From positions 620,001-684,000 of the forward strand of contig JBPGPT010000003.1 of assembly GCA_051047955.1 (NCBI GenBank): a stretch of 64,000 bases of DNA, written 5' to 3'. Each line of letters begins with the position of its first letter. Position 1 is the stretch's first letter. Below the pieces are notes generated by a model. It ran no database searches, was not told the origin of the DNA, and saw only the letters and a program-made list of their open reading frames with translations. The stretch is from Cystobasidiomycetes sp. EMM_F5 (taxonomy: Eukaryota). Of this stretch, positions 44,102 to 55,258 are shown piece after piece. Both the position numbers and the translations under genes were made by a program.

Positions 44102-45103
44102 ATGGCACAGCGCCGCGTCAAGGCAAATCGACAAATCTAAGCTCATGCTGCTAAAAGCTGATAGCTATCCTGCCTTTCTTCGTGCAGGGCGTCGCCGTTC
44201 ATCGTCCAATCGTCTATGGCAACACTTCGGTCTTTCAGCTGCCTAGCGAGCGCACCAATCCCGACCATACACATCGATGGACGGTAGCTGTCAGGTCGGC
44301 AGCCAGTCCGCCGGCTGGGAAACGCGGAGATGTTCAGCAGATTGGCGGTCTCGACGATATTGGACATTTCATAAAGAAGGTGTCGTTCAAGCTGCACGAA
44401 ACCATCCCGAACTCGCTGCGAAGTAAGTTCTTCTCTGCTAAACCTCAAGAACGATGGCATCTATCGAAATTGACGACAGTTTGTTCGGGATTGACTATCT
44501 TTTTGTAACTCCAATCAGCTATCGAAAAGCCGCCTTTTGAAGTAACAGAGACGGGATGGGGAGAATTTGAAATCCAAATCAAAATCTACTTTATCCCAGA
44601 AGCCAACGAGAAATCACCTCTGACAGTTAATCACCTGTTGAAGCTGCATCCGTGGGCGGTCAAGGATGGCATTGTCGTTCCGGCTCTGGAGCCCGTACAA
44701 GGTTCTGCTGGTGTCGACAACATACCCGTGCACTCCTGGCAGTACGATGAGATTGTTTTTAGCGAGCCGACAGAGCCGCTGTACAACATACTCATTCAAC
44801 ATACGCCAACTCCGTTGTAGGTTCCAGCCTGGTTACCTGACTTGGTATTTCGGCGCTGCTTACACTTCACTCGTACACAGATCGAAAGCCTCTCGGCCTT
44901 CGCACAGCTTTACATCGATGCCCATCACGTCGCATAACGGCGGCGCCTATGGGGAATTGAGCGCGGATACTGAAACCAAAGAAGGAGAGCGCATCGATGA
45001 GGCAAAGTCGGGCATAGTAAAAGAGCTCGAGCAGTGGCGTGAGAAGCTCATTGCGTATGAAGCGGAGATAAAGGGGCTCAAGCGAGACATCGAGGGAGCC
45101 TAG
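44102..45103 (+). CDS. YAF9: YEATS domain protein Yaf9 (NuA4/SWR1)
   Basis: [66 protein letters not shown] and [12 protein letters not shown]-terminal coiled coil. Confidence 0.95.
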
Positions 45104-45770: not shown

Positions 45771-46143
45771 ACAGCTGAATGTGTCGGAGGATCGCCTTTG
45801 GTCGGACGAGCGTAGCCAGCGATTATACGCAAGTGCCAGCTTGATCTAAGAAGCTGGGAAATCTAGTCCTACTGGCTCGTGTAGCATCTACATCATAACG
45901 TAGCCTGCTATCGGACGCAATGGTAGAACCTGGCACACATGCGCGAAAGCGCCTACATAGCTGACGCGCTAACCTGTAATGCTTCGGCTGTGCTTCTTGC
46001 TTGCATAGCACTACTGTCAGCGCTGTACAAACAGTGGACAGCCGCGCGTGCGAGCAAGGGATGGAGCCTCTCTCTTCTTTGTGCTATTCTTTCGATACAC
46101 TTCGATTTTACGCCCATTTGGCACGATTCTACAGGACCTTGCA

Positions 46144-48547
46144 ATGCCGTGGTTGGACTCCTTGAAAGCCCTCTTTGGTCGCAACAGAGGGAATGCGGAA
46201 CACAAGTCGACATCAGCGGGTACGTCAGAATTCCAGCACAAAGCCTTGCGAGTATCGGGTGAAGCGATTGTGAACAGATCGACAGTCAGATAAAGTGGGC
46301 GATGCATTCAGACGAATGTTCAGTAATACTCCTTCACAATCGAGTAGCTCGACAGCAGCGCAGCATATCCACAAGCCAACAGCTGGAAGATTGAATTTTG
46401 GGATTTCGACGACCACATTCTTCATTTTCGTCTACGTATTGGTCATTGAAGGGTGGCTGATAAGCAATTCCGTGACGGCTTCGCAAGACCTTTCCGATAA
46501 GGCTGCACCGTCGTCAGCATCTGTCCGATCAAGTATACTTCCAATTCAGCCTACAGCATCAGCCGCACACGTGACAGATGTGTCTGTCATATGGTCGAAT
46601 GTCGAAGAACTAGATCCCGTTGTAAGCGCTCGCCATGCATCTTTCATGCTTGTGGTATTCGCTCAAACTCGGATGCCGCTCCGCAGGCGGCGGCCGATCA
46701 AAGCTTACCAACGCCCTCTCCGAAGACGCGGCTTAAGTCTAGCAGATCTATCAGCAAAAGCGCCCCGACGTTTCGTGAATTGCAGGTCAAGTGCCTGTAC
46801 ATCAAAGGTAGCAGAGTTCCAACAACGTGAGACCGTTTTATATCGTCTGCAAGTCAAATTTGAGGATTCTTTACGACAGTGGCGGAGGTCTTGCGGTCGG
46901 CATCACGGTTATGTACGATGTTTGGATCATTCTCTTTATTCTGGCGGTCATCCTTTACGAGCATAGGCGCCTGAGGTTCGACCGGTGTATGCATTCAGCA
47001 ACAGTTGTGTGAGTTAAGCATAAGGTGTGACAAGGAGAACGGGCTGAGAAGTAATCCGCTTGAAGAGGGATGCTGGAAATTTGGCTGTGAGCCTCACGTC
47101 CAGGCAAAAGACGAAGGTGTTGATGTTACATCCTTAACGGGCAGGGCTAGTTCAATTTTAACCAGAGGAGTCGAAATTCAACTTCAATTGGCAGCTGCCC
47201 TCCTGGTCCTCGCTGCTTTGCCAAACTTATGGTACGGCTTCCCGGAAACGTATCGTAACCGTAAGAGGCTTCTTGCATTGTTTTCATCGCGTACAGGCTG
47301 GCCAGGTGTGCAATCGGGACCCACATATCCATCAAAACCTCGATCCGCTGTGACGATTCAGCCTGTGCAGCCGTCGGATGGTACGGCTGTGCCTCCAGCG
47401 GCGGCAGCAGCCGCAGCACCCAGCTCGTCAACCGATCAAACCTCCGCCCCAGCTGCAGGAGCTGCGCCTGCTGCCGTGACAGTACAGCCCACTCGCCAAG
47501 AAGCTGAAATTGCGCTGCCAGAAGTGGATGTGCGTTATCCAGTTCCATTTGGATGATTGCGATTTGACAAAACCATCTGTGATGTAGCTCAAGCCGGCTG
47601 ATGAGGTGCCAGCATACGTCTACGACCGAAGTCTTCTGACTGGCCTAAGTAGGCTGAACTACGATATCGAGCGACACCCCCGTTCCGCTAAAGGCGTATA
47701 ATATCTGTTCTGCAGGTGATGAGGAGATCAAGAGGCGGTTTGGCGAGATTCCAGATGCAGGTACGTGAACATAGCGCGGACTGACCGACACTAAGACATG
47801 ACCACTCGCAATGCGAATCACATCCGCATCGACGCGACGCCTATCCTTGGAAAATGATGTACTGCATTTAACGATTCTGGTTGCCGAATCGATTTCATGT
47901 GTGCTGCAGTCAGGAAGGGTGAGCGGGAGGATGTGATTACAAGAAGAGCTGCCACTCGCGCTGATACTATACTGTGCCACTTCCTCACTCGCAGCCATCC
48001 CTGGAGGCGTTATGTCGTATACCAACCGCCCATTGACCATGCAAGAGATGATGTACAAAGTATGCCATTAATCCGGTCGCAACGAAAAAGGGCTGACCAA
48101 CTTCCCGCCGACTCCAGGCCATGTTCGACACTTCTGGCGGAGGTGCTGGCGACAGCGCTAGAGATGGGAAGGCTGCAGGAACTGGCGGGATGAATCTGGA
48201 TCGTATGATGATGGCAAGTCGTGTCTACATATTTTCTTGGACCCGGCTAATATAGCTCAATAGATGATGGTACCTCCGTGCTGTCTCCAATCCTGCAGAT
48301 CATCTTCTGATACATGTTCTTTGGACAGATGATGAATAACATGACTGGAGGCAATGTCTTTGGACAAGCTGCGCCGCAGCAACCTGGACGCACCATGAAC
48401 CCTTTCGGCCCTTTAAGTCAACAGAACCCGTATGCTTCTGGGGGCTATGGTCCCAACCCGTACGGCAGTGCGGTTGGCAGAGACACTGCTCTCTCCCGTC
48501 TCCTGCAACGGGAAGCCGCTAAAGAAGCGGGCTACACAGGATTCTGA
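46144..48547 (+). CDS. Orphan ~4-TM membrane protein with Gly/Met-rich tail, tandem copy 1
   Basis: Multi-exon. MPWLDSLK..., HKPTAGRLNFG-TM1, CLY..GS, TM2-YEHRRLRFDR, GMLEIWLAS..RGVEIQLQLAAALL..PNLWYG, PAYVYD, EEIKRRFGEIP-VRK-AIPGG, LTMQEMMYK and DTALSRLLQREAAK. Confidence 0.8.
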
Positions 48548-49032
48548 AACATCGTGTGCGGCCTGCTATAGTACTCAGCGCGAGCCGATGGCGGTGCAAT
48601 CCGCATCAGATTACGCTCGCCTGAAAAGGCGATGGTGTTCGAAACGAAGGTATACAACACCGTTACCGGTCACAGCTCTATGCGAAGTATGATTAGTGAT
48701 ACTGAGCTCCGTCAACCTGATATTTGCGATTGACTGTGCCGCGCTATTTTGACTTACTTACTGAGTCTTGTCTAGGATTTTACATTGTCGTTATGCTTAC
48801 CTCACGCGTGCTAGGGCATACACAACTTCATTTGTAGTCGCGATGAAGGATGTCTACTGAAAGGGAAGACGCGTCAAGGCAGTGCTAATGCAGACAAGAC
48901 CGTCACAATGTATGACAAAGACAGTAATCGCAGTAGTCGCAGTAGTCTGAACAAGCAGGATCGAGGCGGCTTGTCTCCTACAGTATCGGTACCTTTTCTT
49001 ACATTCTAATAACACAAGTCTTGACCTCAGCG

Positions 49033-51534
49033 ATGGCGAACAACCCTGCCACGAGTGTCCCTGGTCCCGAAAATCCCTCCACTGCGTCATCAGCACAACC
49101 TAGTAGGTCGGATGCCAGTATTTGGAAGGTGTGTCAGCACTAAGTAATTTCCCCTTGCCTGCCTTCTGTGTCAGGTCATTCGGCTTCAAGCCTACTGACA
49201 CGATTCTTCAGCAATTCAAAAGCCCAACAGACCGCTGTAACCAATGCACACAAGCCAACCCCTGGAACTGTCAACTTCGGCATTACAACGGGCACATTCC
49301 TGATCCTAGTTTATGTACTAGCAATCGAGTTTTGGCTGATTGTGCATTCTGCCCAAAGTTTCAGCGGCAAAATCGAGATGCGAAGCCAGTCGTCTCAAGA
49401 CGCACGAATCGGTGGTTCGCTGTCAAATTCAACACAGACGCTGTATAATTCTTCGACATCGCGAACAGCGACGCAGCCAGTGACCAGTGGGGAGACGACC
49501 GAAGTGGTCTTCTATGCTATGCACGAACCTACGAGCGACCTCCGTCTCAGGAAGGCACCGCGTCAGAAGAGGATGGACACACAGCCGAGACAAGACCCTG
49601 AGTCGCGCCTCAAGCATAGGTCGCTCAGCAAGCCAAATTCAGCGTTTCAAGCAAAGAATCCAATGTGCCTTTATCACGAGGGGTCACAGCTTCCAAATGC
49701 GTCAGTCTGGCAACAGACACTCGCTGCTATGACTGACGAGCTTCGGCAGTGGTGGATCAACAGCTCTTGCAGTATGCATTCTGTACGATGTCTGGATAGT
49801 GATCTTCGTCTTGGCAGTCCTTGCGTATGAACACAAGCGATTAAGGTTCGACCGGAGAACGCACTCGGCATCAGTTCTGTGAGCATCTGACAGAGACATA
49901 ACATCGACTTGCGTCTGACTGAGCCTTTACTGCCATGTTGGTCAGGGGTTTAATGGAGTTTTGGCTGTAAGATCGATGCTCGGAGCCGCAGAGCAATGCT
50001 GATAGCATGACCTCACAGTGCGAGCGACATTCTTGTCAGAGGCGTTGAGGTGCAACTGCAATTAGCTGCAGCCTTACTCATCTTAGCAGCGTTTCCGAAT
50101 TTGTGGTACGGCCTGCCTGAAACATATCGACAGCGCGAAAAGCTTTTCGCGCTTTTGCTGGCTCGAGCAGATTGGGCAACGGGCAGACCCGGCGCTACAG
50201 GCTCGGGAACACCTGGCCCTTCTGGCCCAGGAGCACTGGCTGGACCGCTAGGTGGGGCTGGGGTTGGCGCTACCGCTACCGCTGCCGCTACCGGTACTGC
50301 GCCAGGCGGTTCCACAGGCGCCGCTGCATCAGCGCCTGGCGGAGCACCTGGTGCACCCGCGGGTGGACTGTCTGGTCCACCGCCTGTAGCTCCCGTAGCT
50401 CCGCCAATCGTTCTGCCGGAGAAAGATGTGGGTGTAGTCTTGCTGAGGTTGCATATCGTACAAGCTCAATTTCACTATCCTAAAGCTTGTCGCCGCTGAC
50501 GACTTACCTGCATGGGTATTCGATAGTTCGGTAGGGGATGGGTTGAGTGAGTTCACGCGCCTTTGCTGCCGATCTGAGCTGAATCAAGTGTTATGGTCAG
50601 GCGGTGAAGAGATTAAAGCGCGCTTTGGCGAAATCCCGGAACATGGTCTGTTCACTCATACGTCTGCTGCCGTCTGTTGTGCTTTTGCTAATCTACCGAT
50701 TCTTGTACTTATTTTCGCTGCATCAACAAAATACGTGGCCGTCTCGCACGCTTCCCTCCCATCAACCACTGTCGCTCACTTCGTTCCACGATACTGCGTA
50801 TGGTACATACCGTCGGCGTTCCGCTCTCAACCGTATTGGATTGCTTTGTGCAAATCTGCTTTGCTAATGCAGTAAGAAAGGGTAAATGCCTCGTCTATGC
50901 TACAAAGTTCTCAAGCTAATTTCCCTCTTCCCCTTTTCTCCCTGTAGCCATTCCAGGTGGCTTGCCCGATCCGCGTCATCGACAATTGACTATGCAAGAG
51001 ATGATGTGGAAAACTCTGTTCGACCAGCAACAAGGCACAGGTTCCGGAGGCAGTGGGACAGCCAGCGCAGGGGGATCGGGCGGTGGAATGATGGATCGTA
51101 TGATGGTGGTGAGCATCTCGTCAGCCAAGCGCAGATTTTCGTCAGCTGTCGCCAGCCGTTTTCATTTCACGTACTTTCCGTCAGCTGAATGTCCTTTCCC
51201 GTCCTGCAGATGATAATGATGAACATGATGGGCGGAATGAGTGCGCCAGGTGGAACTGGGGGAATGATGCAGCCGCGGGAGCAACCGGTTGTGGCTTCGA
51301 CGAGCATGCAAACAGGCCTGCCTCTGCAAAACGCCTATGGTTTAGGCGGATACAGTCAAAACCCGGTCAGTGCATATATGCATGCAAGCGAGTACGACGT
51401 CGCTAACTGACAATCTTTCCCACGATCCTTACGGCCACGCACAGTACGGTAACGGGGCCACGGCTGGTGGAGACTCTGCTTTAGCGCGACTGATGCAGCG
51501 CGAAGCTGCCAGAAATGCAATGTTTCAGCAGTGA
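49033..51534 (+). CDS. Orphan ~4-TM membrane protein, tandem copy 2 (start approximate)
   Basis: Same motif order and mostly the same splice phases as copy 1. Ends DSALARLMQREAARNAMFQQ*. Confidence 0.8.
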
Positions 51535-52357
51535 CATGACATTCAAGCCCCTGTATGTAGTATCCGGATGGAAATGCACGTTGTCGGTACTAGAGTTCAC
51601 CCGATATGTATCAGTCACCATTTGATATTCGCATCTGTCATCCGCTCCGCAAGGCTGCATGACCCGTATGCATTGCTTTTCAGTGCGTGCAAGTCATGTG
51701 GAACGAGTAGCTCTGCGCTGCATGCTTGATGATCTTATTTACCACATCTCGTCGACCCGCTGAGACAGTGCATTCAGGAGAGATGCATATGGCGATATGA
51801 CCTATCTACATGATGGCAACCGTGACGCCCGCAGTACTCGAAGCTGTTGCTGGAAATGGGGTCCGACTTGTGGCATTGGGTCTGTCTGCCATCGCAGCTG
51901 CATGGAGTACCAGACTCGACCTACTCTTCACGGAATCCGATGAACGCTAAACTAACGGCGAATGGCACTGATACTTAGTCCAGCATCCTAATAGGCAAAC
52001 ACCGAGCGGCTCCATGAGTGCTGCCGCTGTTCGCAACCATCGCGGGGGCAGCGATGCATGGATATGTCTCGAGAGATGACAACAAAGCATGATAGTACTG
52101 CATGGCTCAAGCAAGTCAAGGAACAATCCTCGTTCTCCCCTAACCACATGTCCTGGTCTCTGGCGGGTGAGCCGTATGAGCCTGCGCTTGGGATGAACGT
52201 GCCTCCCGCGAGCCATGGAGCAACAGTTGCGGCGGTGTTTTCTGGGAGACAGCTCGGCGCTGCTTACAGCAGCCTGAGTAGGGAGCCATCAAGCGGCGCG
52301 TTACCTATACAGGACACCGTCAGCTTGTCATAGACCAGGAGATCCCGGTTTTGCGGG

Positions 52358-54934
52358 ATGGCGTGGCTGGACTGGCTGAGGGGCAAGTATGGACGAGATG
52401 CAGGGACTTCGCCCAATGCGGTCACCAGCCCTACTACATCTACCGCAAACCCCGCTGCATCATCCAGCGCACAGGCATCTAGTATGTTAATGGCCGAGAC
52501 TCCAGGCACGCGTCTCGTTTAGCACTGACGCTTACTTATAAGGCAATACGAGCCCGAGCCTTCTAACGCAGTTTTTTAGCAATGCGCAACCTCCACAGAC
52601 CGCTGGAACGAATACTCACAAGCCAACCTCTGGGACTGTCAACTTCGTCGTCACAATAACGACATTTTTTATTTTTATTTACGTGCTGGCAATCGAGATC
52701 TGGCTAATAGTCAATTCTGCTCAAAGTGCAAACGGCAGCATTGAGGTCCGTAGCCGGTCTTCGCAAGCGTCGCAAGCAGGAGCAACAACGTCTAGAACAC
52801 ATTCGCAAGCTCTGTATTCTTTTTCAATCACAAAAACGGACACCAAGTGGTCGCAGGAGACCAAGTATAGTGACAAGACGTCTGACATTGTGTTTTATGC
52901 CCTGCCCGAATCCACTACAGAAGTGGGCGTGAAAAGAGCGAGACGAGCCACTAGCCTTGCCGTAACACCAGTGGCAGCGGCTACTGCGTCACGCCATCAA
53001 CACAGAGCACTCAGCAAGCCAAATTCTGCATTTCAAGAGAAGGTTCCGACATGCCTCTACCATCCGGGATCACAACTGCCAAACGCGTCAGTTTAGGGAA
53101 GGTTCTAACTTCTGTGACTGACATGCTCCTACAGTGGCGGAGGAACGGCTCTGGCAGTATGCATTCTGTACGATGTCTGGATTGTGGTTTTCATTTTGTC
53201 AGTCATGGCGTATGAGCAGAAGCGACTGCGGTATGATCGGAGTACGCACTCGGCTTCGGTTGTGTGAGTTGTCGTCCTCAAGTGGAAAGCTCGTAGTAGC
53301 TGACTCGCCCGTACGGCAAAAGGGGTCTAATGGAGTTCTGGCTGTAAGGTCTGAACTGCAAGCGCAAGCCCAATGGCTGAGCACATCATCACCCAACAGA
53401 GCTAGTGACGTTCTCGTGAGAGGCGTCGAGGTGCAACTCCAATTAGCCGCAATCTTGCTCATTTTAACAGCGCTTCCGAATTTGTGGTACGGCTTACCCG
53501 AAACATATCGGCAACGGGACAAGCTGTTCGCGCTTCTGCTTGCTCGAGCAGACTGGGCAACGAGCAGACCTGGGGCTGTAGGTCCGGGTCTGCCTGGCCC
53601 TTCCGGTCCAGGAGCATCCGCTGCGCAAACGGGTGCACCCCCTGCTGGGGCTCCTGCTCCTGCTTCTGGGGCGGCCCCGGGTGCCGTGCCACCGCAAGCA
53701 TCCGGCGGACCCCCTGGTGCAACCGCGGGCGCGCCGCCTGGTCTAGCACCCACAGCGCCTGCAGCTCCGCCAATCGTTCTGCCAGAGAAAGATGTTGGTG
53801 TAGTCTCACTTACAACGCTTACTTCAATACTGATCAAGAGCTTATCTGCAGCTAATCGCGACCAACGACCTGCCAGCATACGTATATGATACTTCATTAC
53901 TAACTGGCTTGAGTCAGTCAACTGCACGCTCATACCGTCGAGCCGTACTCAAGTCAGATTCTACGAACAGGCGGTGCGGAAATCAAAGAACGCTTCGGAG
54001 AAATACCCGAAGAAGGTGCGTTGCCTTCCGTTGTTCGATGACGACTAGCCTTCTTTAGTGTCTTTCGCTAAAAGTTCTCTTCCTGCATGTGCGCCCACCC
54101 GATCCCGTGATTTCGTTCACGCACACTTCGATGCACCAAACCACTTTACAATCTATGGGCCGTTGGTGGATCTTCCTCGATGCCCGCGGGCTGTTCCGAA
54201 CGGCGCTTGAACTCGCCCCCAATGTTACGCGTATACACCTCCTGGGCATACACAGTTCGAAAAGGTGGGCATGCGGCTGAAACACCGTCAGGATGAGAAA
54301 ACGCCTGACCGCGCACCCCTCTCCTTTTTCTCTCCTTCAGCATTGCCTGGCGGAATTCCTGATTATCGCAATCGGCAATTGACGATGGAGGAAATGATGT
54401 ACAAAGCTATGTTCGATTCTGGCGGCGGAGCTTCAGGCGGAGCCAGTGGAGGAACTGGTGCAGGTACAGGCGGGGGTGCTGTTTCAGGTGGTGGGGGCAT
54501 GGATCGTATGATGATGGTACGTGTCGCTCTAACTGCGCTAGGTTCAGCACCTGGCAGGCTGCAATTTGCCTTTTCCGCGGCTCTATAGCATACAATCGCT
54601 AACACTTGTCATACAGATGATGATGATGCAGCAAATGTTCGGGGGAGGCGCATTCGGCAGTAAAGGCGGCATGATGCAACAGCAGCAACCTCCTGGACCA
54701 AGCGGCAGTATGTCGGCCTTCCCACAACAGAACGCATATGGTCCAGGCGGATACGCTCAGAACCTGGTCGGTTCATTGAAAATACAGCATAGCATGCTAT
54801 AAATTCTGATATTAATATCGCAGAATGCTACCCAATTGGGCACTGGGCCATTGGCTGGAGGAGATTCTGCTCTAGCGAGACTTATGCAAAAAGAAGCTGC
54901 CAAAAACGCCTTACAACAGCAATTCGGGGTCTGA
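52358..54934 (+). CDS. Orphan ~4-TM membrane protein, tandem copy 3
   Basis: Starts MAWLDWLRGKYGRD, similar to the copy 1 start. Same motifs. Ends DSALARLMQKEAAKNALQQQFGV*. Confidence 0.8.
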
Positions 54935-55258
54935 GCCTGTCGCAATACGTTAAAGAAGTCAGTGTCGCTGTTCTCCCCCTCTTGCTCATGCAAAGTTGCC
55001 TTCTAGAGACACCGCTTCATAATGAAGGCTGCGTGGTATCACAGCGCATTGACAAAAAAGCTTTACGCCGATTGCTCATGGCGTAGACATCGACTCATGC
55101 ACATGCGGAATTGGCGGGTACAATTGCAGATTGAAAGTCGCATGTTCAGCGCGAATTCTGCTTGATCCGCAGCACATGAAAGTACTGAGATGCAGGCATT
55201 AAGCGTCATACAATAGAGCTGATTACGGAAGTCCTCGTCGAATTCCATGCGCATATTT

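Follow-up and report, generated by a model that had tools for sequence, protein, structure and literature searches.

Can an exon of only 9 nucleotides (nt) be part of the coding sequence of a fungal gene and, if so, is it always kept in the mRNA or switched in and out? The question is raised by three tandem paralogs, here called A, B and C, which lie on the same strand of a 64,000-nt stretch of DNA from Cystobasidiomycetes sp. EMM_F5 (assembly GCA_051047955.1, contig JBPGPT010000003.1, positions 620,001 to 684,000). This whole stretch is referred to below as the window, and all positions are counted from its first letter. In each paralog, the interval between an exon encoding a GEIP motif and a downstream exon encoding a PGG motif holds a 9-nt block that would add the tripeptide Val-Arg-Lys (VRK) to the protein (Table 1). 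An earlier note on this DNA had proposed that the block is a hidden coding micro-exon, and our results support that proposal through canonical splice signals, phase and amino acids that are fully conserved between old paralogs. Judged from the sequence, the block is probably a genuine internal coding micro-exon that is constitutively included in the three tandem paralogs, constitutive inclusion being the most likely mode of its splicing.

Reading frame, chance and selection at the 9-nt block

The letters, the coordinates and the cag and gt flanks of the three blocks as previously described were all exact. Each block has AG directly upstream and GT directly downstream, which are canonical splice signals, and its length is 9 nt in 3 of 3 copies, within the micro-exon size of at most 15 nt that is used in the available part of a study of Coprinopsis cinerea (PMC12230235). 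The GEIP exon ends in phase 1 with a G, and together with this G the codons are GTC AGG AAG in A, GTA AGA AAG in B and GTT CGA AAA in C, so that VRK is read in every paralog with synonymous differences only, as the earlier note had it. The final G of each block is the first base of the Ala codon of A(I/L)PGG, the PGG exons themselves opening with CC or CA, and the spliced motifs become GEIPDAVRKAIPGG in A, GEIPEHVRKAIPGG in B and GEIPEEVRKALPGG in C. The exon had also been described as frame-neutral, and this was borne out by translation: models that skip the 9 nt stay open, with the GEIP exon joined directly to the PGG exon in frame.

A short block flanked by AG and GT could arise by chance, and several controls bear on this point. 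As candidates we took every block of 3-30 nt, in multiples of three, that lies between AG and GT in the three GEIP-PGG intervals. The intervals contained 4, 3 and 4 candidates, and VRK alone was common to all three. In dinucleotide-preserving shuffles of the intervals, a candidate of at least 9 nt common to all three appeared in 0 of 20,000 trials, and a pair of intervals sharing a candidate of at least 9 nt appeared in 9; a shared candidate of any length was seen in 64 of the same 20,000, in the form of single codons. Since shuffles ignore relatedness, the same enumeration was run as a control on all seven orthologous intron intervals, and a candidate peptide was shared in one of them, the GEIP-PGG interval, the peptide being VRK. 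Among the 19,927,128 triples of 14-mers that can be drawn from the three intervals, the combination of cag, the 9 nt and gt was the single best, with 9 summed mismatches compared with 12-13 for unrelated triples, and no triple stood above background except those overlapping the micro-exon. Outside the micro-exon, the flanking introns were unalignable among A, B and C in the three-way DNA alignment.

The pattern of change within the block is that of a coding sequence under constraint. The copies vary at four of the nine positions, namely the third positions of all three codons and the first position of the AGA/CGA codon, and every one of these differences is synonymous; when five random substitutions were simulated, V-R-K-A was kept in 562 of 200,000 runs. 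The paralogs are old and their synonymous sites are near saturation. The proportion of synonymous differences (pS) was 0.757 between A and B and 0.777 between A and C, both saturated and beyond correction, and 0.609 between B and C, where the synonymous divergence (dS) was 1.25. Non-synonymous differences among the paralogs ranged in proportion from 0.21 to 0.39. Of the 170 columns in which a degenerate amino acid is invariant, only 38 show one and the same codon in A, B and C. Synonymous-only change between paralogs of this age therefore indicates that VRK is held by selection at the protein level, and not by recency or gene conversion. The tripeptide is under amino-acid-level purifying selection, and this selection suggests that the micro-exon is present in the mature mRNA.

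The three gene models contain 31 introns, 30 of them GT-AG and one GC-AG, with a median length of 61 nt, and splitting each GEIP-PGG interval at the micro-exon leaves a downstream intron of ordinary size (66-76 nt) that carries a CTRAY branch motif 28-32 nt before its 3' end and has 75-100% pyrimidines. We propose that the pre-mRNA would contain two separate spliceosomal introns at this site, a long one upstream (149-240 nt) and a typical one downstream, and that each would be removed on its own through intron definition, leaving the 9 nt in the mRNA. According to the available part of a comparative study (PMC3925392), splice sites in fungi are believed to be recognised in pairs across the intron and not across the exon, and under such pairing the small size of the exon would be no obstacle. 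In Coprinopsis cinerea, about 9% of gene models were found to contain an internal micro-exon of at most 15 nt, some of them of 1-3 nt, as far as the accessible text of that study goes (PMC12230235). At the protein level, Val-Arg-Lys would place two positive charges directly after the acidic GEIP(D/E)x stretch of the conserved tail motif, and we infer both a constant inclusion of the micro-exon and a role for the tripeptide.

Some further observations concern the introns themselves. The long upstream introns do not align mutually. An intronic snoRNA as the cause of their length is unsupported, since Rfam gave no match over positions 46000-55100 at an expectation value (E) up to 1. A recursive or twin-intron arrangement was also considered and rejected: the junctions G+TCAGGA in A and G+TAAGAA in B are donor-like, but splicing there would take away the phase-1 G and disrupt the frame, and the junction in C, G+TTCGAA, is not donor-like. 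The intron of A at 48214-48328, which follows ...LDRMMM, begins with GCAAGT and is an apparent GC-AG intron; at the same place, B and C begin with GTGAGC and GTACGT.

A distant homologue and a second small exon

A profile of exon 4 searched against 1.84 billion representatives gave nine matches at E up to 0.001. Two were open reading frames (ORFs) of this locus, another six were short ORF fragments on contigs of ENA or Logan, and the last was full-length. The latter, P0010 (NCBI CAD6582543.1), is a hypothetical protein of 611 amino acids (aa) from Cyphobasidiales sp. and the single full-length homologue found, homologous to the paralogs over its N-terminal two thirds, including the three hydrophobic segments (BLASTP, E 6e-36 to 1e-41). 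The search with the PGG exon of C returned the window's own ORF alone, that with exon 2 of B returned no match, and P0010 as a query matched itself alone. Two metagenome scans, one with the alignment of exon 4 and one with that of the PGG exon, yielded 426 and 284 pattern matches, respectively, and tblastn confirmed none of them.

The homologue bears most directly on a second small exon of the three genes. It is 21 nt long and falls between the second and third hydrophobic segments, with the exon of the second transmembrane segment (TM2) before it and the exon starting with ASD(I/V)LVRGVE after it, and is surrounded by introns of 52-67 nt. Its consensus, G(L/M)(M/L)E(F/I)WL, matches GGLEFWL of P0010, and dropping it from the models cuts the BLASTP score to P0010 by 18-26 bits (from 129 to 111, from 146 to 120 and from 147 to 128). 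With the 21-nt exon supported in this way by P0010, tiny exons between short introns are established as a feature of these genes.

For the 9-nt exon, the homologue says less. In a MAFFT global alignment, the ARK of P0010 (GTGPSAEARKYVLGG; EARKYVLGG) stands opposite the VRK of the paralogs (GEIPEHVRKAIPGG), and the tail profile gives the same register, with 0.2 bits and E 0.04 for a single-sequence search; this placement may be taken as weakly consistent with the micro-exon. P0010 resembles the paralogs in that its GGLEFWL lines up with the 21-nt exon and its ARK-YVLGG with VRK-AIPGG, and differs from them in its tail, which is poorly conserved, the match over the VRK motif being not significant and the comparison being one of protein only. 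A contiguous stretch that, by eye, seemed to be present in the ORF fragments P0007 and P0009, GR(S/T)P(D/E)EA...KK/ARISKYN..AIP, was considered as a counterpart of GEIP-VRK-AIP and was dropped, because the tail profile gave it scores of -2.1 and -2.5 bits only.

Several of our results weigh against a micro-exon at this site. The upstream introns (149, 227 and 240 nt) are the three longest of the 31 and have no well-placed consensus branch motif. However, the CTRAY consensus is absent from 15 of the 31 introns, and because of this the weakness of the branch motifs upstream says little either way. The BLASTP segment to P0010 ends near residue 321-324, short of VRK, and models with and without the 9 nt score alike against P0010 (129/129, 146/147 and 147/147 bits), the equality being explained by a significant segment that stops before VRK is reached. 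Moreover, all of the evidence for the micro-exon is drawn from three paralogs of one genome.

Regulated skipping and other explanations

The 9-nt exon could instead be a regulated cassette, a possibility that the earlier note raised, included or skipped by condition, so that all three paralogs would be produced as isoforms with and without VRK. The block is frame-neutral and the direct GEIP-PGG join is open, and with upstream introns that are long against a median of 61 nt and branch motifs that are weak or absent, inclusion could be inefficient or tunable. A condition-dependent micro-exon has in fact been reported in a fungus, in Xlr2 of Trichoderma virens, according to the part of that report available to us (PMC11121469). 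However, frame neutrality is weak evidence for a switch, because it is expected of any exon that inserts whole codons, and the coding selection on VRK shows that the included form matters but says nothing for a skipped one. In animals, neuronal micro-exons of 3-27 nt preserve the frame and insert a few, often charged, residues in conserved regions of proteins; they are defined across long introns, and dedicated factors act on conserved intronic sequence at their flanks. Regulated animal micro-exons typically have such conserved flanks, whereas in the genes described here the flanks are not conserved, the introns are short and of fungal type, and no intronic sequence is shared among the copies beyond the exon and the splice dinucleotides. 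In 23 fungi, exon skipping accounts for about 3% of alternative-splicing events in the available part of the comparative study, and the intron definition thought to operate in fungi also speaks against a cassette (PMC3925392). Overall, we regard a cassette as unlikely. Its more specific version, in which the cassette is coordinated in all three paralogs, the long and weakly signalled upstream intron makes inclusion tunable and the yeast switches between +VRK and -VRK tails by condition, would be less likely again. A micro-exon switch conserved across the paralogs of a basidiomycete yeast is not described in the papers that our literature search found.

It could also be argued that the GEIP and PGG exons are separated by one long intron and joined directly in the mRNA, the conserved block being a non-coding element that serves, for example, as a splicing signal or enhancer. 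The direct join is in frame, the block is only modestly conserved at the nucleotide level (9 mismatches summed over 14 nt, compared with 12-13 for the best background triples) and the distant homologue P0010 shows no significant preference for either form. A non-coding element would nevertheless have to vary only at the synonymous positions of VRK, an outcome as rare under random substitution as the 562 in 200,000 simulations given above, and to preserve the exact 9-nt distance between AG and GT in A, B and C alike. Moreover, single introns of 234-325 nt would be by far the longest in these genes, and Rfam was blank in the region. This makes a non-coding element very improbable. Chance coincidence, or residual similarity after a recent duplication or gene conversion, is hardly credible: some shared sequence is expected of paralogs, but the shared block was reproduced in none of the 20,000 shuffles, six of the seven intron intervals show no such sharing, the saturated synonymous sites and unalignable introns contradict a recent homogenisation of the interval, and a recent conversion event would leave identical nucleotides and not synonymous differences.

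Host genes, public annotation and significance

The gene models were obtained from the three-way DNA alignment, the enumeration of frame-keeping introns and translation, with inferred start codons. In A, the intron at 46622-46686 within exon 2 is likewise inferred, and was one of 19 frame-keeping options for that intron. These are the only three copies of the gene within the window, and complete proteins are obtained from them only when they are spliced. The coordinates of the features are collected in Table 1.

Table 1. Coding regions, exons and introns of the three paralogs in window coordinates
Feature	Paralog	Coordinates	Strand	Details
Inferred coding region	A	46144-48547	+	12 exons, 525 aa, one open frame when spliced
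Inferred coding region	B	49033-51534	+	11 exons, 558 aa; tblastn of the model returns its exons
Inferred coding region	C	52358-54934	+	11 exons, 587 aa, one open frame when spliced
Candidate 9-nt micro-exon, V-R-K	A	47910-47918	+	TCAGGAAGG; context ctgcag/TCAGGAAGG/gtgagc
Candidate 9-nt micro-exon, V-R-K	B	50873-50881	+	TAAGAAAGG; context atgcag/TAAGAAAGG/gtaaat
Candidate 9-nt micro-exon, V-R-K	C	54256-54264	+	TTCGAAAAG; context acacag/TTCGAAAAG/gtgggc
GEIP exon, 45 nt	A	47716-47760	+	ends in phase 1 (G)
GEIP exon, 45 nt	B	50601-50645	+	phase-1 G at 50645
GEIP exon, 45 nt	C	53971-54015	+	phase-1 G at 54015
PGG exon	A	47995-48059	+	split relative to B and C by an extra intron, 48060-48117
PGG exon	B	50948-51108	+	
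PGG exon	C	54341-54516	+	
Intron upstream of the micro-exon	A	47761-47909	+	149 nt, GTACGT...cag; TTAAC 38 nt from the 3' end, the sole branch-like motif
Intron upstream of the micro-exon	B	50646-50872	+	227 nt; the sole CTRAY is CTAAT, 5 nt from the 3' end
Intron upstream of the micro-exon	C	54016-54255	+	240 nt; no NTRAY in the last 60 nt
Intron downstream of the micro-exon	A	47919-47994	+	76 nt, GTGAGC...cag; CTGAT 30 nt from the 3' end; pyrimidine fraction 0.75
Intron downstream of the micro-exon	B	50882-50947	+	66 nt; CTAAT 28 nt from the 3' end; pyrimidine fraction 0.95
Intron downstream of the micro-exon	C	54265-54340	+	76 nt; CTGAC 32 nt from the 3' end; pyrimidine fraction 1.0
Second small exon, 21 nt	A	47066-47086	+	G-M-L-E-I-W-L
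Second small exon, 21 nt	B	49946-49966	+	G-L-M-E-F-W-L; aligned to GGLEFWL of P0010
Second small exon, 21 nt	C	53323-53343	+	G-L-M-E-F-W-L

Each of the predicted proteins combines three hydrophobic segments with a long tail in which Gly, Pro, Ala and Met abound; the best-conserved stretch of this tail is ...RFGEIP(D/E)x-VRK-A(I/L)PGG...LTM(Q/E)EMM(Y/W)K...MDRMM. When the exon translations were searched against Pfam, every hit fell below threshold (DUF7298 reached 14.5 bits where the cutoff is 27; the others were DUF4834 and Hira), and no family was found for P0010, P0005, P0007 or P0009 at E up to 1. In the ESM Atlas, a DUF7598 cluster was reached at 0.75, below the 0.9 level, and structure matches had TM values below 0.2. 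Membership of the host protein in DUF7598 was not accepted, the Atlas score being a lead only and no Pfam profile passing its threshold. The host appears to be a lineage-restricted membrane-protein gene outside known families.

The positions of introns vary among the paralogs. Paralog A has the apparent extra intron in exon 2 (46622-46686), its PGG exon is split after ...EMMYK by the intron at 48060-48117, and its 3' end (48329-48547) is without the last intron seen in B (51366-51444) and C (54767-54823). A Met-rich run continues across an intron in all three, reading MDRMMM/MMNNM in A, MDRMMV/MIMMNMM in B and MDRMMM/MMMMQQM in C, with the slash marking the intron (48199-48340, 51091-51240 and 54499-54640, respectively). 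It is followed by Gly/Gln/Pro-rich low complexity and then by a conserved C-terminal (D/R)(S/T)AL(A/S)RL(M/L)Q(R/K)EAA(K/R). Just upstream of A, at 44155-44820, lies a gene with a YEATS domain (PF03366; two neighbouring ORFs match at E 2.5e-08 and 4.3e-15), which is interrupted by one or more introns or frame changes.

One of the three genes is represented in the public annotation by a fragment. The entry KAL7009497.1, a hypothetical protein of 181 aa from Cystobasidiomycetes sp. EMM_F5, is identical in 179 of 179 residues to the unspliced exon-4 ORF of paralog C (53122-53889). It reads past the exon-4 donor at 53794 into the intron and is a fragment that lacks both small exons and most of the others. 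The announcement of the genome of this isolate describes a Funannotate prediction from a DNA-only data set (PMC12697161), and a read-through fragment of this kind fits a prediction made without RNA evidence. The same announcement refers to 27 Cystobasidiomycetes genomes in MycoCosm and NCBI. The micro-exon is absent from the public gene model, and exons of its kind are known to be common in basidiomycetes, going by the available part of the Coprinopsis cinerea study (PMC12230235).

With the micro-exons of that species the block would share the features of a very short internal coding exon, short canonical introns and escape from the predictor, and their omission was found to damage gene models, in the text of the study accessible to us (PMC12230235). 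As far as that text shows, the present case is unlike its long-read set in that omission here keeps the frame, 9 nt being three codons, and unlike its read-based catalogue in resting on conservation among three paralogs of a Cystobasidiomycetes yeast. The exon of Trichoderma virens Xlr2 is likewise a fungal micro-exon whose inclusion alters the protein, in the available part of its description (PMC11121469). Xlr2, however, is a transcription factor in which glucose-dependent inclusion decides whether the DNA-binding domain is present, whereas here three residues would be added to a motif of a basidiomycete membrane protein, a change predicted from the sequence. If skipping were true, these paralogs would be a rare fungal case of a micro-exon switch at the protein level.

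The main value of a constitutive micro-exon in these genes lies in annotation, as complete proteins would be obtained only if both tiny exons, of 9 and 21 nt, are recognised. Frame-neutral micro-exons are hidden from ORF tracks and ab initio predictors, and a comparison of paralogs that finds an identical peptide, synonymous-only differences and unalignable flanks can expose them. For the family itself, the micro-exon would add two positive charges to the most conserved motif in the tail of a lineage-restricted group of membrane proteins.

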